A stretch of 32,766 bases of DNA from contig CAYIBO010000002.1 of the NCBI GenBank assembly GCA_964361545.1, forward strand, positions 1 through 32,766, in the 5' to 3' direction. The position numbers were made by a program, and so were the translations under genes. Positions 3,897 through 11,841 of this stretch are shown here, piece after piece. The notes under the pieces are model-generated. The model was given only the letters and a program-made list of their open reading frames with translations, made no database searches and had not been told where the DNA came from. This DNA comes from an uncultured Candidatus Bathyarchaeia archaeon (GTDB taxonomy: Archaea; Thermoproteota; Bathyarchaeia; 40CM-2-53-6). The stretch's first letter is position 1; each line of letters begins with the position of its first letter.

Positions 3897-4940
3897 GTGA
3901 AAGGTCTCATACTCGCTGGAGGTTTTGCGACAAGGCTGAGACCTCTTAGCTGCTCCAAGCCCAAGCTTCTGTTTCCTGTTGTCGGGGTCCCTCTCATCGA
4001 CCTGATGACCGCATGGTTGAGGGAGGGCGGGGTCCGAGAGGTGATTCTTGCAGTGAACCATCTTTCGGAACGACTTCGGCTGGAGGTTGGAGAGAGGAGG
4101 TTGGGCTCCAAGATTAGGCTTTTAATCGAAACAGAACCGTTGGGAACAGCCGGCCCAATACGTCTGGCGAGGAGGTTCTTGGACGCTGACGAACCGTTTG
4201 TTGTCGTGAACGGGGACATCGTCAGTGACATCAACCTCGGGGAGATGGCGCGGGCGCATGGCGAGCATTCCGCACTTGCAACCGTTGCCTTGGTAAGTGT
4301 CTCAGACCCGATACAGTATGGTTCTGTGACTCTCACCCCGGATGGGCGGATCGCCAAGTTTACAGAAAAGACACCAGCACGTTCCAAGTCCACTCTGGTG
4401 AATGCCGGAGCCTACGTTCTCAGTCCAAGGGTCTTGGATTTCATACCGCCCAGCGGACCAGCTAGTCTTGAACGGGCTGTGTTTCCAAGACTTGCTGAGA
4501 TGGGTGTCATATGGGGCTGGAAACACAGTGGGTATTGGTATGACATCGGGAGAATTCCTGGGTATGTGAAGGCTAACATGGAGATTCTAAGAAAGTCGAG
4601 AATGAAGGCGACTCCTGCTTTAGAGGGTCCTTGGATTGGCAGGAAGGCCGTGCGACCATTCCACATAGGGAAAGGATCTCATGTGCAGAGCGGGGTCCGG
4701 TTAGGTCCAAATGCAATACTGTCGGAAAGAGTTCTGGTTGGAGAGAAGTCAAGAGTAACCGACTCGATTATCTTCGAGGATACTGCGATTGGCGAGAACT
4801 GCATCGTGGAGGGGGCTCTGATCGGTGAGAGGGTCGTCATCGGCGAGGATTCTAAAATCGGGAAGGGAGCCATTGTAGCGGGACAAATTTCCGTACCAAA
4901 AGGTTCCATCATCAAGGAGAACTCGGTCATTCTAACCTAA
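3897..4940 (+). CDS. sugar-1-phosphate nucleotidyltransferase with C-terminal left-handed beta-helix domain
   Basis: N-terminal MKGLILAGGFATRLRPLSCSKPK (the G-x-G-T-R-L NTP-transferase signature). The C-terminus carries hexapeptide-like repeats (IGENCIVEGALIGERVVIGEDSKIGKGAIV). GTG start. Confidence 0.82.
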   Translation: MKGLILAGGFATRLRPLSCSKPKLLFPVVGVPLIDLMTAWLREGGVREVILAVNHLSERLRLEVGERRLGSKIRLLIETEPLGTAGPIRLARRFLDADEPFVVVNGDIVSDINLGEMARAHGEHSALATVALVSVSDPIQYGSVTLTPDGRIAKFTEKTPARSKSTLVNAGAYVLSPRVLDFIPPSGPASLERAVFPRLAEMGVIWGWKHSGYWYDIGRIPGYVKANMEILRKSRMKATPALEGPWIGRKAVRPFHIGKGSHVQSGVRLGPNAILSERVLVGEKSRVTDSIIFEDTAIGENCIVEGALIGERVVIGEDSKIGKGAIVAGQISVPKGSIIKENSVILT

Positions 4941-4948
4941 TCGAGTCA

Positions 4949-6340
4949 GTGGGAAAGACTGAGAGGTCGGTTGGAAGCTTGAGCGTGCCACGATTGTTCG
5001 GTACGAACGGCATACGAGGGTTGGCTGGAAGGGAAATTGGTGCTGAGTTCGCCTTCAAGCTAGGTTGCAGCGCAGCCGTCTTGTTTCGACGTGGTCGAGT
5101 ATTTGTCGGCTGGGATGGTAGAGATTCAAGCCCGATGCTCTCGGAGAGCGTGTTGGCTGGCCTGCTCTCTCAGGGTGTTGATGTTCTGGATGCCGGTATG
5201 ATAACGACTCCTGCTCTGCAGTTCTTGGTCAAGACTATGTCCGCGGCGGGAGGTATCATGGTTACGGCAAGCCACAATCCTCCAGAATACAACGGGTTCA
5301 AGATCATAGATTTTGACGGAATTGAGATTCCTCGGGAAAAGGAGGAGAAAATTGAGAAGCTGCTACACGATGATCGCTGGAAGACTGGGAGAGAGACAGG
5401 TTCTAGGCTTAAGCCAGAAGGATTGCTCGAAACGTATCTGGACCGTTTGAAGGACCAATTTGGCCGAGAGACGAAGACGTTTGGGGGGTTGAGGGTGGTT
5501 GTGGATTCAGGGAACGGAGTATCAGCTCTTACCACGCCGAGGATTCTATCACTGCTGGGCTGTGATGTTGTTACTGTGAACGACAATATTGATGGCAGGT
5601 TTCCAGGGCGCCCTTCGGAGCCAAGGCCTGAAACACTGTCCATGCTTTCAGGCTTGGTGCGAGAGGAGAGGGCCGACATTGGTATCGCTCACGATGGTGA
5701 TGGGGACAGAGCACTCTTCGCGGATGAATCAGGGAAGGTTCACTGGGGGGACAGAACCTTTGCTTTGGTCGAAGACGAGGTGCTTAGGGAGAGTAAGGGC
5801 GGGAAGGTGGTGACGCCTCTGAACTCATCGATGGCTGTGGCTGAGATTGCTCGTCGGAGAGGTGGGAGGTTGATCCTGACGAAGGTTGGAAGTATCTACG
5901 TGTCACGGAAGATGGTTGAGATAGGGGCGGTGTTGGGCGGGGAGGAGAATGGAGGGATATTCTATGCGCCGCACCATCCAGTGAGGGACGGGACCGTGGC
6001 TGCACTTCTGGTTTTGAAGGCGATGGTGAGGAACAAGATGCCGTTGTCGAAGCTGCTCGGGCGTCTGCCGAGCTTCTTCATGGCTAAGGAGAAATTTCCC
6101 TGCCGGGACGACGCACAGAAGAAGCGTGCGATGGCACGGTTGAAAATCATGCTTGTGAAGCGAGTGACGAGCAAGCTGGACGGGGTCCGCGTGGATTTGA
6201 AGGATAAAGGATGGGTTCTTGTGAGGCCGAGCGGGACAGAGCCTCTAATACGGCTGTATGCGGAGGGGCGAACCGAACAGCATCTCTCGGATATTGTGAA
6301 CGAGTTCAGGCCTATGGTCTTGCAATCGTTGAAGGGTTAG
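4949..6340 (+). CDS. phosphohexomutase (phosphoglucosamine mutase / phosphomannomutase family)
   Basis: Active-site loop TASHNPPEYNGFK, metal loop GIAHDGDGDRA, and GEENGG and RPSGTEP blocks. The start may be GTG 4949 or GTG 4985, which gives MPRLFGTNGIRG. Confidence 0.9.
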   Translation: MGKTERSVGSLSVPRLFGTNGIRGLAGREIGAEFAFKLGCSAAVLFRRGRVFVGWDGRDSSPMLSESVLAGLLSQGVDVLDAGMITTPALQFLVKTMSAAGGIMVTASHNPPEYNGFKIIDFDGIEIPREKEEKIEKLLHDDRWKTGRETGSRLKPEGLLETYLDRLKDQFGRETKTFGGLRVVVDSGNGVSALTTPRILSLLGCDVVTVNDNIDGRFPGRPSEPRPETLSMLSGLVREERADIGIAHDGDGDRALFADESGKVHWGDRTFALVEDEVLRESKGGKVVTPLNSSMAVAEIARRRGGRLILTKVGSIYVSRKMVEIGAVLGGEENGGIFYAPHHPVRDGTVAALLVLKAMVRNKMPLSKLLGRLPSFFMAKEKFPCRDDAQKKRAMARLKIMLVKRVTSKLDGVRVDLKDKGWVLVRPSGTEPLIRLYAEGRTEQHLSDIVNEFRPMVLQSLKG

Positions 6341-6571
6341 GCTTCTTTCCGGTCTTGGGGTTTTGCGTCTCGGGACACTGTTGATTTACCCCCTTTTCTG
6401 AAGGGGTGCTTTTGCTCGCGGATGTTCTGGGCGTTCTTGGCTGTTTGGGGGAAATGGGCTTGAAGGGGTCTGGCGGAACCCTGGAAAACCCCCGGGTCTC
6501 AGCATGGTTTCAGGGTGGTTGAGATTCCCCGGCGCATTTTTGAGATTCGGCTTGTTTTGGAGAATTTCGAG
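6341..6571. repeat. GT-rich intergenic element, copy A (apparent paralog of 22590-22835)
   Basis: By-eye ungapped match of about 24/32 nt. It is anchored on CCCTGGAAA (6479-6487 vs 22735-22743) and GC(A/G)TGGTTT 23 nt downstream in both copies. Looser similarity and recurrent GGGTCTG words lie on both sides. This was not computed rigorously. Confidence 0.4.
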
Positions 6572-7993
6572 TCAGGGTCTGCCGGTTGAAAGGTATGTGA
6601 AGCCGGCTTTCTCACAATCCTTCCGTGACAGAGTGTTCCTGGTGTCGAAGAGAACCGGGTTTGGCCGCATGAGACGCCGTAGCGTGCGCAGTGGGGCTTG
6701 GTGGAACTGGTTATGGTTCGTGGTTATGAGAACGCAGTCGGTGCCGGACACGGATTCAGTCATTGACCGGGCCGACTCGTAGGTTCTCCCTTCTACTGTG
6801 ACTTTGGGCACGAAGGGATCGTATACCCTCAGGCTCATCCGGGTTCTTCTCAAAAGCCTGAGAATGTCGAGGGCGGGGCTTCGCCTGGTGTCCCTGACCT
6901 CTCCCTTGTAGGAAAGACCCCACACAACTACAGTACTATGAGCAGGGTTCTTCCCGGCTTCCTTCAGAGCCTGCAGCACGCGATCTACCACGTGGCGCCG
7001 CATCCATACTGTTCACCACGCTTGCGGCAGATACTAACCGGAGGGGAAGGCCAACCCTTCCGGGCCTTGTACACCAGGTAGAGCGGGTCCTTGGGAATGC
7101 AATGACCACCAATCCCAGGCCCAGGGTAGTGAGGCATGAACCCGAAGGGCTTAGTCGCCGCGGCACCGATGGCCTCAATGAAATCCACACCCAAGACTTC
7201 GTGTAGAACGCTCAGCTCGTTGACAAGAGCGATATTCACATAACGGAAAATATTCTCCAAGATCTTAGCGGCCTCAGCAACAGAAGGACCGCTGACCTCA
7301 ACAACGGAAGCCCTCAGGATCGCCTTGTAGAAAGCGGCACCGAGCTTCGTAGAGGCGGGTCGACCCCTCCCACCACCTTGGGGATATCCTTCACACTATA
7401 TCGCGGATTGCCATAGTCAATACGCTCAGGCGAGTATACCAAGGCGAAGTCCCTACCCGCCTTCTTGCCTCCCTTCTCGAGAAGGGGCCGCAGAACTTCT
7501 TGAGTAGTCCCTGGATAGCTGGTGCTCTCGAGGATCACCAGTTTGAACTTCTGAAGAAACAGGGAAAGGTTCCTAGCAAGGATTTGACATAACCGAGGTC
7601 AGGCTCTCCCTCCTTGGAGAGGGGAGTGGGAACACAGATTATGACTACATCCGCGTCCCCGGCACCTTCACGCAGACGCGTCGTGGCTTTGATCCTGCCG
7701 GCCTTTACGAACTCGGGCAGAAACCGCTCGCTGTACTTGTCCTCGACGTAGCACTCCCCAGAGTTGACCTTGCGAACCTTCTCTTTGCTAACGTCAACAC
7801 CGACAACTGTGAAACCTGCCTCCGCTGAGGCGACAGACAGAGGCATCCCCACATAACCAAGACCGACAACGCAAACTCGAGCGACCCTGGAACGTATATT
7901 TTCTAGGAGAGAGTTCGGCGCACTTTTCAGGACTATTTCCTCCACGCTTTCTTTACCGCAGACAGAATCTTCACCGTAGGGTCCTCCATCCAC
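6572..7993 (-). pseudogene. UDP-sugar 6-dehydrogenase (UDP-glucose/GDP-mannose dehydrogenase family, WecC/Ugd-like) interrupted by four 1-nt frameshifts
   Basis: Four consecutive ORF fragments (7535-7993, 7314-7538, 6985-7260, 6572-7003), plus a short stretch in the 6936-7190 frame, together read as one full-length dehydrogenase. The segments are [91 protein letters not shown] and VVVWGLSYKGEVRDTRRSPA. Frame changes are near 7578-7586, 7350-7360, 7052-7060 and 6998-7010. Confidence 0.8.
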
Positions 7994-9000
7994 GCCAGAA
8001 GCTTTCTCCCCTCTTGCCTCTGCTTTTCGAACTTTTCCGGACTGCTGATTATGTCCGGGACCCTAGAAGCGATCCTCCGGGGAGAACGAATAGTATCCAC
8101 TAGCCCAAGGTTCTCAAGGTATTTGATGTAAAGCGGCTTCTCGCCCGGGAAACAAGATATGGCTGGAGTTCCCAGCAACGCAGCTTCTACAGTCATGGTC
8201 CCGCCAGAGCCTACGAAAGCTGAAGAATGCGCTATGAGACTGGTTGCGTCGATTATGCGATCCAGGACCTTAACCTTCCCACCGAATCTCCTTCTGATGA
8301 CCGGAGCCTGGAGACCATACCGAGTCGAGACGACTATTTGCAGGTCCATTCGCAATCTCAGGAGTTCCTCGATAACAGGCAGGATAACTGGTGCTCGGTC
8401 TGAAGCGCTACCCATGAGGTACGAGGCAAAGGCCTCTTCCGTCCGAAGAAACACGATGGGCCTGTCAGGGTCCAGCCCTAGTTCGGCAAGAACCCTGCGA
8501 CTTGGCTTGTGGCGTTTCAGCCACGCCGAAGGGTCCAGTGCCCTATATCGGACAATGCCCCTAGCACCGAAAGCCTTCCACACGGATGCTTTGATTATCC
8601 AAGGTGAACAAACGGTGACCGAAAGCGGAATCGTTAATCGGGCCACCATCCAAGAATGGGGGGAATCATTGGCCGCCACATGAGGAATCCCAAGACCAAA
8701 TGCCACCCGGGCTGCTTCCGGAGACGAAAACGATACAGCGACATCAGGGTCCCAACTATTCATCAGACTTGCAAGCTTCACTACCCTATCGCCACTCGCT
8801 ACCAGCTTTCCAAAGGGAGCCCCGCCGCCGTGCTTCCCAACCACTTCGTAGTGTAGCTTCTTGAAGCGAAGCGCTTGTTCAGCCTCCCTATACAGGCGGG
8901 TAGTAATCAGCACCTGGTGTCCTTCAGCTTTGAAGACATCATGAAGTGGAGCGAAGAAGAGAGCCTGTTTGGGTGTTAGAATGTCAATCCATACTTTCAA
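7933..9000 (-). CDS. DUF354-family protein (GT-B / UDP-GlcNAc 2-epimerase-like fold, function unproven)
   Basis: The N-terminus MKVWIDILTPKQALFFAPL...GHQVLITTR...VVGKHGG matches my memory of archaeal DUF354 proteins. TTG start (reverse complement of 8998-9000). It lies directly upstream of the dehydrogenase pseudogene on the same strand. Confidence 0.7.
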   Translation of the reverse strand: MKVWIDILTPKQALFFAPLHDVFKAEGHQVLITTRLYREAEQALRFKKLHYEVVGKHGGGAPFGKLVASGDRVVKLASLMNSWDPDVAVSFSSPEAARVAFGLGIPHVAANDSPHSWMVARLTIPLSVTVCSPWIIKASVWKAFGARGIVRYRALDPSAWLKRHKPSRRVLAELGLDPDRPIVFLRTEEAFASYLMGSASDRAPVILPVIEELLRLRMDLQIVVSTRYGLQAPVIRRRFGGKVKVLDRIIDATSLIAHSSAFVGSGGTMTVEAALLGTPAISCFPGEKPLYIKYLENLGLVDTIRSPRRIASRVPDIISSPEKFEKQRQEGRKLLAWMEDPTVKILSAVKKAWRK

Positions 9001-9038
9001 GACGCAGCTCCACTAACAGACAAACCGTCGGGAATGTC

Positions 9039-9049
9039 TTTAGATAAAA
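9039..9049. promoter_or_regulatory. A/T-rich TATA-like element in the divergent intergenic region
   Basis: TTTAGATAAAA is the only A/T-rich block between the divergent starts at 9000 (minus) and 9087 (plus). It lies about 38-40 nt from each. Confidence 0.3.
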
Positions 9050-9086
9050 GATGAGAGTAACGTGTCGCTAGTTCGCGTCTTGAATT

Positions 9087-10562
9087 TTGCAGGACGCTAT
9101 TAGTGGTAATGGATTATTGTGTCCATGTGGTGCAGCTAGCAAACTCGTCGCCTTCCCTGGTACGACTTTTCAACAGACAAGTAGCAATCGGTTAAGCGAC
9201 TCAACAAGAAGAGTCGCGGTTTCCCGAGCGGAGAGAGCAGAAATTCTATCTCACAACTCGCAAGATGCTACGAGAAGCCTTGCCATATTGGGAAGCCAGC
9301 CCGAAGCACTCCTAATGGCAGTCCTCTTCGCAGAAGCAAGAGTTCACACATACCTTGCAGGACCCTTCGAAGGGTCCAGCGAGAGAAGCCTGGGAAGGGC
9401 CTGGGACGAGGCTCAATGGCTACTCTCTCTACACCGGAAGAACGGCACAATCAGACAAGCCGCCGACGTGAGAGACCTGCCTCTCTCTGATATTGAGGAC
9501 ATCGTAGTAGCGGGGCACGCAACGAACCAACGTGAAACAGGCGACCTAGAGAGAGTGGTCAGGGATGTTGCAAAGAATCTGCAGAAAAACAGCAATCTCA
9601 CCTTCACTGGCCTCTGTAGGCCAGGATACACGCTTGAAACCATCGGGGAAACCGTCAGAAAATACAGCGGTCTCTCGATAGGAAGCGAAGTGGGCCTCTG
9701 CTACTCGCCACTCCTCTGGAACGGTGAGCCTCTACATGCCTTCAGAGAAAGACCAGCGATTATCGCAGGGATCGGGGACAAGGCAGTTTCTCATGTTCAA
9801 GACGTTTTTCTGCGAATCTTCCCGACCATGACGACGACATCCAAGGTCAACGCAGCAGAGGCAGCGGGACTGTTCACTCCCATATACAGAGACGTTGTGG
9901 GTGCCCTCCAACTAGAGCTGGCCAACATGTGTGAAGGTGAGCGAGTGGACTATTCTGATGCGATAGATCTATGCAAAGCCTTTGGTTTGCACAATCTTGG
10001 AGTCCCTAGAACCACCCCTGCCAGAGACGCTCTCGCCAGCCAAATAGCAATCTCCTCAAACCGCAACGGGTGGAACTCACACCTGATTAGGGCAGCAAGG
10101 CGAGTGAACGAACATGCACACACGCAGATTCTCATAATGATCAAGAACGCGCTGGCGCGATGTGGCAGACGAATGAGACATTCGAGAATCGCAGTCCTAG
10201 GATTGCATGGACTACGCCCCTCTACAGGAGCGAGACACGAGCCTCCGCAGATACTTCAGACCCTTGAGCGGAGAGGGGCCATAGTTTCCCTCTATCCCGG
10301 AGAGATCCCGGTTGCTAGTCTGAATGGCCTCGCTGAGAGCATAACAGTCGAGAAGACCATTTCCAAGGCTGTTCAGAGAGCCAACTGCGCCCTGATAGCC
10401 CTTGAAAGGCCCGTAGAAACGGAACTCAATCCGCAAAGGCTGGCTTCGGAAATGACCCGGCCGGCTGCAATCTGCGACCTGACACGGGTTATGGAAGCTT
10501 CAAATGTGGAACGGGCAGGCCTCTTCTACACTTCAATCGGAAGAGGCAGCCCGGAGGCATGA
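9087..10562 (+). CDS. divergent UDP-glucose/GDP-mannose dehydrogenase-family paralog lacking the NAD-binding and catalytic motifs (putative pseudoenzyme)
   Basis: It aligns by eye along its whole length with the neighbouring dehydrogenase, but GxGxxG is replaced by ILGSQPEAL. VPTP becomes AGHAT and ESTxxPGTT becomes TGLCRPGYT. SPERI becomes [13 protein letters not shown] becomes TTPARDAL, and the UDP-binding R-E-S-P becomes HEPP. TTG start; the N-terminal 60 aa are uncertain. Confidence 0.6.
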   Translation: MQDAISGNGLLCPCGAASKLVAFPGTTFQQTSSNRLSDSTRRVAVSRAERAEILSHNSQDATRSLAILGSQPEALLMAVLFAEARVHTYLAGPFEGSSERSLGRAWDEAQWLLSLHRKNGTIRQAADVRDLPLSDIEDIVVAGHATNQRETGDLERVVRDVAKNLQKNSNLTFTGLCRPGYTLETIGETVRKYSGLSIGSEVGLCYSPLLWNGEPLHAFRERPAIIAGIGDKAVSHVQDVFLRIFPTMTTTSKVNAAEAAGLFTPIYRDVVGALQLELANMCEGERVDYSDAIDLCKAFGLHNLGVPRTTPARDALASQIAISSNRNGWNSHLIRAARRVNEHAHTQILIMIKNALARCGRRMRHSRIAVLGLHGLRPSTGARHEPPQILQTLERRGAIVSLYPGEIPVASLNGLAESITVEKTISKAVQRANCALIALERPVETELNPQRLASEMTRPAAICDLTRVMEASNVERAGLFYTSIGRGSPEA

Positions 10563-11500
10563 AACGTGTCAACGCAGGCGTAATAGGAACAGGTTTCTGG
10601 GGCGAAAACCAGGTCAGAGTACTCCGACAAAGCCGGGCCTGCAACCTCCTCGGAATCTGCGACACTAGTGAGAAGCGTGCTCGAGAAGTAGGCTCAAGGT
10701 ACGATGTGCCCTGGTTCACGGACCTTCAGAAATTTCTGAGAACTCCGGGGCTCCAAGCAGTAACGGTCTGCACTCCGACCCATACGCATCTCAAAGTGGG
10801 CCTCAGCGCTCTCGAAGCTGGGAAAAACGTTCTCGTCGAGAAGCCGATGACGGGAGAAGAGAAGGCTGCAGAGAGGCTCATCAGTGCAGCCCGAAGAGGC
10901 GGCCTGAAACTGCTGGTGGGCTTCATAGAGCGGTTCAACCCAGGCGTGGGAATGGTCAGGAAAATGCTCGAGAGGAGGGTCGTTGGCGAGGTTATCATCG
11001 CCACAGGACGAAGAGTGGCCCGCTGGCCCGTCCGAATAGGGGATGTTGGGGTGATCAAGGACACGGCGATACACGATATTGATGTCATGAGATATCTATT
11101 GGACGAAGACGTGTCCGCGGTATATGCCCAGACCGGTTCACTCAAGCATTCTTTCGAGGATTACGCGGAAATCGTGTTGCGCTTTGGCGGGGGCACAACC
11201 GGGTTTATAGACGCTAACTGGCTCACGCCGCGCAAGGTCCGGACCCTCATAATAACAGGAAGCGAGGCGACAATAAACCTCGACTACATAACCCAAGAGA
11301 TAACCGTAGAGGACTCAGAGAAACTCACCAAGCCTCACGCTAAGTGGGACGAGCCATTGCGCTTGGAGCTGGAACACTTCCTCGAAGCGGTAATGAACGA
11401 TGCGGACCCACACCCGTCGGGGGAGGACGCATTGGAGGCAATACGGATATGCGATGCGGCTTTGAGATCGGGCAAGAGTCGACAAGTCGTCAACGTGTGA
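10559..11500 (+). CDS. Gfo/Idh/MocA-family NAD(P)-dependent oxidoreductase (WbpB-like sugar-nucleotide dehydrogenase candidate)
   Basis: N-terminal VNAGVIGTGFWGENQVRVL Rossmann motif and the VLVEKPM (EKP) motif. The ATG overlaps the upstream stop as ATGA at 10559-10562. Confidence 0.85.
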   Translation: MKRVNAGVIGTGFWGENQVRVLRQSRACNLLGICDTSEKRAREVGSRYDVPWFTDLQKFLRTPGLQAVTVCTPTHTHLKVGLSALEAGKNVLVEKPMTGEEKAAERLISAARRGGLKLLVGFIERFNPGVGMVRKMLERRVVGEVIIATGRRVARWPVRIGDVGVIKDTAIHDIDVMRYLLDEDVSAVYAQTGSLKHSFEDYAEIVLRFGGGTTGFIDANWLTPRKVRTLIITGSEATINLDYITQEITVEDSEKLTKPHAKWDEPLRLELEHFLEAVMNDADPHPSGEDALEAIRICDAALRSGKSRQVVNV

Positions 11501-11556
11501 TAGTCACCTACACATTCAGCTAGAATTAGACTTATCAGGCTCCACGAAATCTCCTG

Positions 11557-11841
11557 TTGAAGAGTGATAACATGAAGAGACGGTTGATGGACATCCTCGC
11601 CTGCCCGATAGACAAGCACTATCCACTGGACCTTCACGTCTTCGAGGAGAAGGACGAAATCGTGGAGGGAATGCTGGTCTGCTCAGAGTGCGGACGCTGG
11701 TATCCGATCATGGACGAGATCCCACAGCTCCTGCCAGACGACCTTCGCGAGGCCAAGCCGGAACTATCTTGGCTGGAGAAGTGGAAGAACAAGGTTCCGC
11801 AGAAGGTGCTGACAGAAGGGAAGCCGTTTACGTTACGATAA
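11557..11841 (+). CDS. Trm112-family small protein
   Basis: LMDILACPIDKHYPL ... LVCSECGRWYPIMDEIPQLLPDD is the typical Trm112/DUF343 pattern. ATG start. Confidence 0.7.
   Translation: MKSDNMKRRLMDILACPIDKHYPLDLHVFEEKDEIVEGMLVCSECGRWYPIMDEIPQLLPDDLREAKPELSWLEKWKNKVPQKVLTEGKPFTLR

Follow-up and report, generated by a model that had tools for sequence, protein, structure and literature searches.

We examined a stretch of 32,766 nucleotides from an uncultured Candidatus Bathyarchaeia archaeon (contig CAYIBO010000002.1 of assembly GCA_964361545.1, positions 1 to 32,766), referred to here as the window, and in it a gene that encodes a member of the UGDH (UDP-glucose dehydrogenase) family. We call this gene X, a name we use for the UGDH-family gene found in one slot of a gene cluster of the Bathyarchaeia; the copy in the window is the open reading frame (ORF) at 9087..10562 on the plus strand, and it is followed by a gene for a Gfo/Idh/MocA oxidoreductase, hereafter Gfo. 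An initial annotation, made from the DNA letters and their translations, had described X as a full-length dehydrogenase paralog whose cofactor-binding and catalytic motifs are erased and which is nonetheless maintained. Numbered loci (L), genomes (G), genera (g) and families (f) below carry our own handles. The features of X and of its junction with Gfo are these:

9087..10562, plus strand: longest ORF of X, 491 amino acids from a TTG start, a dead UGDH/WecC-fold protein of the deadC type
9087..9266, plus strand: N-terminal extension of X, unconserved, with a predicted local distance difference test score (pLDDT) below 50
About 9270-10550, plus strand: conserved core of X, residues ~62-488
9279..9338, plus strand: former Rossmann beta1-loop-alphaA, LAILGSQPEALLMAVLFAEA, in which GxGxxG has become GSQPEA (family signature G-x-x-P-E-A)
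9852..9896, plus strand: former catalytic helix, AAEAAGLFTPIYRDV, in which Gly261 stands for the catalytic Lys and Pro265 for the Asn
9996..10055, plus strand: former catalytic Cys loop, LGVPRTTPARDALASQIAIS, canonically GxGGHCxPKD and now Cys-free
10200..10247, plus strand: former UDP-binding block, GLHGLRPSTGARHEPP, canonically GlaYKg..DtRrSP
10440..10547, plus strand: hyper-conserved C-terminal tail, LASEMTRPAAICDLTRVMEASNVERAGLFYTSIGRG, residues 452-488
10559..10562, plus strand: ATGA overlap of the X stop and the Gfo start, junction GGAGGCATGAAAC
10559..11500, plus strand: Gfo/Idh/MocA oxidoreductase, 313 amino acids, ATG start

The frame is indeed open from 9087 to 10562, as the initial annotation had stated, but the first ~60 of its 491 residues are probably untranslated. 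In-frame starts occur at 9087, 9117 and 9288 (all TTG) and at 9315 (ATG), and the window DNA holds no ATG, GTG or TTG in this frame between 9117 and 9288. Residues 1-61 are disordered in an AlphaFold2 model, the first 60 are unconserved in the ortholog alignment, and in the closest relative (locus L038, 96% protein identity) the DNA matching the extension carries two 1-nt deletions, the frame being closed by a stop 34 codons 5' of the TTG equivalent to window position 9288. Given this lack of conservation and order and the broken frame in L038, X probably starts downstream of 9087, somewhere between about 9231 and 9288. Judged from these comparisons, the 60-residue extension is probably untranslated or without function, and the true length is probably ~425-443 amino acids rather than 491. 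The exact start is uncertain; it is probably either TTG 9288, in which case beta1 would be lost, or else a codon of non-canonical type at ~9231-9245.

We next consider the fold. X matches TIGR03026, the NDP-sugar dehydrogenase family, over residues 113-462 with 83.7 bits (cut-off 189.8), and its second-best family is the archaeal UDP-ManNAc dehydrogenase NF040825 (48 bits). Among Pfam models, the UDP-binding C-domain scores below threshold (22 bits vs 30), and the N-terminal and central dehydrogenase domains are undetected in X. The AlphaFold2 model, built from 36 orthologs (pLDDT 79.7, predicted template modelling score [pTM] 0.77), has the full UGDH architecture beyond residue 61, with a Rossmann N-domain, a helical dimerisation domain and a Rossmann-like UDP-binding C-domain. 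When this model was compared with the Protein Data Bank (PDB) by Foldseek, the top matches were all NDP-sugar dehydrogenases (E 1e-25 to 1e-19); they align over their full length and include 3g79, 4r16 (template modelling [TM] score 0.76, target-normalised), CalS8 and bacterial, archaeal and human UGDH. The model and these full-length matches bear out the three-domain dehydrogenase layout first proposed from the ORF.

To set the motif register we used HMMER pairwise and profile alignments to 4r16, 3g79 and Cap5O, together with MAFFT alignments to canonical relatives from the same loci. In the N-domain, the position of GLGYVG is occupied by G69-SQPE-A74, with two of three Gly gone, the Asp that ends beta2 has become G92, VPTP has become AGH144A, and YSPER has become YSPLLW. 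In the catalytic helix, AE..K...N reads AEAAG261LFTP265, so that both the catalytic Lys and the Asn are gone. The counterpart of GGHC(I/L)PKD spans residues 309-320 and contains no Cys; the cysteines of X lie at residues 12, 14, 177, 205, 282, 296, 359, 434 and 463, with none within 297-358. Lastly, D.R.SP corresponds to R383-HEPP, and the UDP-binding RxSP is gone. These alignments agree with the replacements GxGxxG to GSQPEA and RESP to HEPP that had been read by eye; the erasure of the Cys block also stands, although the exact register given for it was off by 2-3 residues, which is without consequence. Active-type members have 102 positions with at least 85% conservation; of these, the X family retains 28 (chiefly Gly, Pro and residues of the core), has 16 fixed as another residue (including K to G261, T to H144, D to G92 and G to A74), and has lost conservation at the remaining 58.

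Two candidates for displaced motifs were examined and rejected. The sole G.G..A match in X, G228-IGDK-A233, lies in an unconserved 'GG' turn that closes the N-domain, and no Cys lies close to the old loop. The profile alignment, which the initial annotation had named as a check on its reading, thus places no intact GxGxxG and no catalytic Cys anywhere in X. Of six features that define the NDP-sugar dehydrogenase family, X lacks five and keeps the fold. At the level of sequence, this confirms X as a predicted pseudoenzyme, that is, a homolog of an enzyme that has lost essential catalytic and cofactor-binding residues. One could instead suppose that X is still an NAD-dependent dehydrogenase that uses displaced residues, given that the fold is complete and that C296, which precedes the place of the old Cys by ~19 residues, is 80% conserved. 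We consider this highly improbable. X has lost the GxGxxG glycines and the beta2 Asp, and the pyrophosphate-binding helix begins with a conserved Glu (Glu73); X has also lost the Lys, Asn, Cys and RxSP, and with TIGR03026 it reaches 84 bits where active-type relatives reach 380-415.

A homolog search with X returned 153 proteins; among the 120 listed, identity ranged from 41 to 96%, and most were ~435 amino acids long. They are named Bathyarchaeota or Bathyarchaeia proteins in NCBI (two records) and 'UDP-N-acetyl-D-mannosaminuronate dehydrogenase' in JGI. All 36 of the X orthologs that we aligned have GxxPEA, AEAAGLF and the Cys-free loop, and 38 columns are invariant down to 40% identity. In a set of 1.84 billion representative proteins, the X family proper consists of six full-length 50%-identity clusters plus fragments, all at 233 bits or more, followed by a score gap down to 194 bits or less. 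Across 301 sampled genomes of the class, X scores of at least 430 bits were confined to genera g1 and g2 of family f1 (19 of 19 genomes in g2), the remaining genomes giving 219 bits or less; none of the matches of at least 430 bits contained an internal stop. The 23 X loci from GTDB representatives come from soil metagenome-assembled genomes of Bathyarchaeota or Bathyarchaeia, apart from four labelled just Crenarchaeota or 'archaeon' and two labelled as bacteria, which are probably mis-binned.

We then asked whether X is under selection. In 46 ortholog pairs with dS below 1.6, dN/dS by the Nei-Gojobori method (NG86) was 0.07-0.25, and between the window and L038 it was 0.205 at dS 0.08. For comparison, the values were 0.03-0.06 for Gfo and 0.06-0.10 for the DUF354 gene and the canonical UGDH. 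Because dN/dS is 0.07-0.25 in ortholog pairs, X is, as judged from these ratios, under purifying selection and not in neutral decay. A decaying pseudogene, whose frame would be kept open just so that ribosomes reach the overlapping Gfo start, might be suggested by the fact that dN/dS of X is 2-3 times that of Gfo, by the long stem branch of the X family (2.45 substitutions per site in the maximum-likelihood [ML] tree described below), and by the single frame break seen inside dead X at 2 of ~30 loci (L034:6983-6987 and L037:6519-6545), which is either an assembly error or an occasional real disruption. The dN/dS values indicate constraint at the amino-acid level, and the 38 invariant columns, the confident predicted fold and the uninterrupted matches in the 301-genome sample point the same way, so that this explanation is largely refuted and has very little left to recommend it. 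The degenerate motifs and the pairing with Gfo are common to the orthologs, and the view of X as a maintained pseudoenzyme rather than a decaying gene has thereby come through both the profile alignment and the ortholog and selection analysis that had been set for it beforehand.

If X is constrained, where does the constraint fall? Within the X family, conservation is lowest in the former catalytic loop, at 37% mean pairwise identity, compared with 62% in X proteins of other lineages that retain the catalytic Cys (Cys-bearing X, described below). Conversely, the 37 residues of the tail (452-488) have 80% mean pairwise identity in the X family and 48% in Cys-bearing X. In the canonical proteins and Cys-bearing X the order is the opposite one: the central domain and catalytic loop are best conserved (62-89%), and the C-terminal tail stands at 48-56%. 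The residues newly fixed in the X family cluster in the C-domain (R364, S401, E422, E455, P459, S472, N473 and V474), and the long central helix, residues 254-284, is well conserved. As far as alignments can show it, constraint on X has left the active site and now falls on the C-terminal domain, most strongly on the last 37 residues. Since both the newly fixed residues and the conserved tail lie there, the former UDP-binding domain may have gained a new functional surface.

The slot that X occupies belongs to a larger cluster, GlmU - GlmM - DUF354 - X - Gfo - Trm112, which is conserved in most families of the class (window 3897-11841; loci L040-L087). Within it Gfo and DUF354 are variably present, and Trm112 lies nearly always beside X or Gfo. 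In the window, the other members of the cluster and an additional dehydrogenase gene are:

3897..4940, plus strand: GlmU-like nucleotidyl/acetyltransferase, UDP-GlcNAc supply
4949..6340, plus strand: GlmM-like phosphohexomutase, UDP-GlcNAc supply
6572..7993, minus strand: canonical WecC/UGDH-type paralog with intact motifs, split in four frame pieces
7933..9000, minus strand: DUF354 protein, divergent from X, model pLDDT 91
11557..11841, plus strand: Trm112-like small zinc-ribbon protein, a constant neighbour of X or Gfo across the class

Across the class, the X slot holds proteins in different states. In 29 surveyed loci X is Cys-bearing and keeps GLGWMG, the Lys, GGHC(L/I)P(V/L)(Y/N)PY and ETRxSP; these loci come from the sister genera g3 and g4 of f1, the rest of the order, and families f16, f23, f27, f29 and f31. 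The Cys-bearing X proteins (L040:6803-8314, L041-L044, L048-L067) are themselves atypical, with GGHC(L/I)PVYPY instead of PKD (Asp to Tyr or Asn), YSPIRA instead of YSPER (Glu lost) and often Thr for the Asn of the catalytic helix, and going by these residues they may not be ordinary four-electron dehydrogenases. In another 18 loci (families f17, f18, f20 and f32), X is dead in a different way: these proteins are without the Cys, have lost RxSP and mostly the Lys, and show a partly decayed GxGxxG. TIGR03026 scores step down accordingly, from 415 for canonical proteins through 380 for Cys-bearing X and 252-268 for the other dead X to 84 for the X family of the window. Some dead-X genomes also encode a short, 286-amino-acid UGDH-like protein (L091:1558-4013, from G008 of f17, with a similar one in L092) that has GLGEVG, the Lys and GGHC, lacks the C-terminal UDP-binding domain, and is encoded beside a hexapeptide acetyltransferase and a DUF354 gene.

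In the ML tree, all X proteins are set apart from the canonical paralogs with a support of 100 in the Shimodaira-Hasegawa-like approximate likelihood ratio test (SH-aLRT). When left free, the tree joins the X family of the window to the other dead X (SH-aLRT 99); grouping it instead with the Cys-bearing X from its own taxonomic family is not rejected by the approximately unbiased (AU) test (p-AU 0.35). Long-branch attraction is likely to affect the placement of the window's family, and on these sequences either one or several catalytic losses in the X lineage are possible.

The same tree bears on the relationship between X and the dehydrogenase gene across DUF354. As the initial annotation had noticed, this paralog is frameshifted yet intact in its motifs: in this assembly it lies in four pieces (7571-7879, 7356-7577, 7057-7362 and 6635-7003, all on the minus strand), the frameshifts being either real or assembly errors, and in relatives it is intact at 451-456 amino acids. 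It is the only other family member in the window's genome, which is 89% complete. In many g1/g2 genomes a canonical WecC-type gene lies directly behind DUF354, overlapping it by a few bases in L001 and L016 and abutting it in L039, with a 61-base ORF overlap in the window; where it is absent from that place, it was found elsewhere in the genome in 4 of 5 cases checked. The idea that X is a recent duplicate of this neighbour was rejected on the SH-aLRT separation of 100 and a per-domain identity of 18-25%. By phylogeny and identity alike, X is a separate, old lineage rather than a recent copy of the neighbouring paralog.

Could X nevertheless work together with the canonical paralog? A dead enzyme can modulate a live relative: the prozyme of trypanosomes is a catalytically dead paralog that heterodimerises with S-adenosylmethionine decarboxylase (AdoMetDC) and activates it (PMC6221367). 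By analogy, X would form a heterodimer with the canonical WecC/UGDH paralog via the central dimerisation domain and modulate its activity, which would suit the conserved central helix (254-284) and the presence of a canonical paralog in g1/g2-type genomes, often just across DUF354. On the other hand, the sole canonical paralog in the window's genome is broken into four frames, the f17/f32 genomes with dead X have no full-length canonical paralog, X is only ~18-25% identical to that paralog per domain, and X is never translationally coupled to it. We therefore regard prozyme-like action on the canonical paralog as quite unlikely. X resembles the prozyme in being a full-length dead paralog of a metabolic enzyme that is under selection and has a presumed protein-contact role. 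It differs in that its candidate partner is an unrelated oxidoreductase, that complex formation and activation are here only proposed, and that several lineages have gained or kept a dead form at a single orthologous locus.

That candidate partner is Gfo. Its best family is the archaeal UDP-GlcNAc 3-dehydrogenase NF040723, at 313 bits and below the cut-off of 450. The overlap of the X stop with the Gfo ATG, spotted in the window as ATGA at 10559, recurs as a 4-nt (A/T)TGA overlap in 28 of the 28 ortholog loci with a scorable junction. The order of a divergent DUF354, then X, then Gfo holds at all ortholog loci whose sequence reaches far enough to show it, with Trm112, GlmU and GlmM nearby. The reading we prefer, to which we give a probability of roughly 45%, is that X would be a non-catalytic subunit that is made together with Gfo and binds it through the reshaped C-domain. 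The history that we envisage is as follows. GlmU and GlmM would make UDP-GlcNAc, the DUF354 protein would epimerise it, and ancestral X would have been the original 6-dehydrogenase of the cluster, of the UDP-ManNAc/GlcNAc type. In g1 and g2, a second, canonical WecC-type dehydrogenase would have taken over this activity, and X would have lost catalysis. Present-day X would be produced in a fixed ratio with Gfo through the 4-nt stop/start overlap, and would stabilise or regulate Gfo via its C-terminal domain.

Several observations weigh against this history or against X as a partner of Gfo. First, displacement by a canonical paralog fails for f17 and f32, since dead X is the sole full-length family member in three near-complete genomes of these families (G008, G288 and G090); it is constrained there as well (dN/dS 0.15-0.18 in f17, 0.12 in f32). 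Second, the (A/T)TGA overlap is also found in most pairs of Gfo with Cys-bearing X or with other dead X across the class. Because pairs with Cys-bearing X have it too, the overlap is, by this distribution, ancestral, older than the catalytic loss and not specific to the dead form; its presence where X looks active weakens the idea of a Gfo partner, which the initial annotation had offered with reserve as a scaffold or regulatory role. Third, roughly one in two Cys-bearing X genes lacks a neighbouring Gfo. Fourth, family f32 retains its dead X (dN/dS ~0.12) without a Gfo ortholog: in genome G077, which is 99% complete, no match was found at E<=1e-10, and in G090 the best Gfo match is 36% identical and located elsewhere in the genome. 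The persistence of dead X in f32 weakens the partner idea further. Finally, recombinant MMP0352, a related enzyme from archaea, is reported to be active by itself (bioRxiv 10.1101/2023.03.18.533286); our literature searches on DUF354 and archaeal UDP-GlcNAc 3-dehydrogenase otherwise yielded nothing relevant.

These points leave room for a broader and more tentative proposal, which we hold to be possible but somewhat doubtful: the X lineage might have a second, non-catalytic function older than the catalytic loss, for example as an obligatory structural or activating subunit for Gfo or for the UDP-GlcNAc module. If so, this second function would explain why X was each time retained and not lost after catalytic death in possibly two or more lineages (f17/f18/f20/f32 and g1/g2). 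For nucleotide-sugar metabolism, X would then be the first subunit of pseudo-dehydrogenase type to be described, within a natural series from active to fully eroded.

Alternatively, X could have been neofunctionalised independently of Gfo, its remodelled cleft binding a new ligand, so that in the synthesis of glycans derived from UDP-GlcNAc it would have a sensing or regulatory role or would catalyse a reaction by a new mechanism. This would explain both the class-wide linkage to GlmU/GlmM and the retention of dead X in f32 without Gfo, and it fits the f17 and f32 loci, where X is co-directional and tightly packed with GlmU/GlmM (GlmU and X overlap in L074), as well as the three genomes in which dead X is the sole full-length member. 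A set of invariant residues could line such a site (H144, Y206-P-L-L-W211-x-G-E214, E258, N341, D464 and R486), and the 16 conserved-but-different positions are in former active-site loops. Yet no segment is less conserved than the former catalytic loop, loss of both the NAD and the UDP fingerprint leaves no obvious ligand, and no other Pfam or NCBIfam family matches X. On balance we think a Gfo-independent, ligand-binding X unlikely.

How does X compare with known dehydrogenases and their gene neighbours? It is most like the WecC-type UDP-N-acetyl-D-mannosamine 6-dehydrogenases (4r16 of Pyrococcus horikoshii; NF040825), with which it shares the full-length three-domain fold (TM 0.76), collinear central helices and a C-terminal '..D....G..Y..GRG' end, and among which it finds its best sequence matches in the PDB and, within TIGR03026, in NCBIfam. 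It is unlike them in that the NAD fingerprint, the beta2 Asp, the Lys/Asn/Cys set and RxSP are replaced, that its score is far under the family cut-off, and that conservation is inverted, with a variable active site and a fixed C-terminal tail. The arrangement with Gfo also recalls WbpA and WbpB, which carry out steps of the UDP-2,3-diacetamido-2,3-dideoxy-uronic acid pathway in Pseudomonas aeruginosa and have the counterparts MMP0353 and MMP0352 in Methanococcus maripaludis. As there, a UGDH-family gene lies directly upstream of, and is coupled to, a Gfo/Idh/MocA gene (here with archaeal UDP-GlcNAc 3-dehydrogenase as best family), and the genome has a DegT-type aminotransferase, here at another place. 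In contrast to WbpA, X cannot be a 6-dehydrogenase, as its catalytic motifs are lost; moreover, the aminotransferase and acetyltransferase are absent from the cluster, and Gfo scores 313 bits where 450 would be the cut-off.

Pseudoenzymes are well known among kinases, proteases and a few metabolic enzymes. In our literature searches we found no description of a conserved dead or Cys-lacking member of the UDP-glucose/GDP-mannose dehydrogenase family. The dehydrogenase name carried by these proteins in JGI is misleading, and reconstructions of the cell envelope and glycans of Bathyarchaeia that rely on it would be wrong at the X step. The X slot also presents a graded series at one locus, from active-looking X, through X that is dead at the catalytic and UDP motifs yet above the family cut-off, to fully eroded X, which should be useful for studying the change from an enzyme to a non-catalytic subunit. 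The organisms are uncultured, yet the proteins can be expressed heterologously, so that the partner hypothesis is directly testable.

Some further observations concern the neighbouring genes. The model of the DUF354 protein is closest to the non-hydrolysing UDP-GlcNAc 2-epimerases 7vz6 and 7vza (TM 0.75-0.77), ahead of GT-B glycosyltransferases, and also matches the WbpI-type epimerase 8sy0; a sequence search of the PDB with this protein gave no match. Going by the model, it may be the epimerase of the cluster. Between some pairs of loci (L018/L020, L016/L020 and L021/L023), the X-Gfo side and the DUF354-UGDH side differ several-fold in dS; for L018 and L020 the values are 0.16 and 0.09 on the X-Gfo side, compared with 0.67 and 0.94 on the other. 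Such differences in divergence suggest a recombination breakpoint in the divergent promoter region. The genome has one clear DegT/WbpE-type aminotransferase (G000 contig C8 15288-16358; L090:8253-9374), a second match being marginal. A glycan cluster around this gene was considered and rejected, as the gene stands alone and adjoins a thermosome gene. This aminotransferase could use the 3-keto compound that Gfo would produce.

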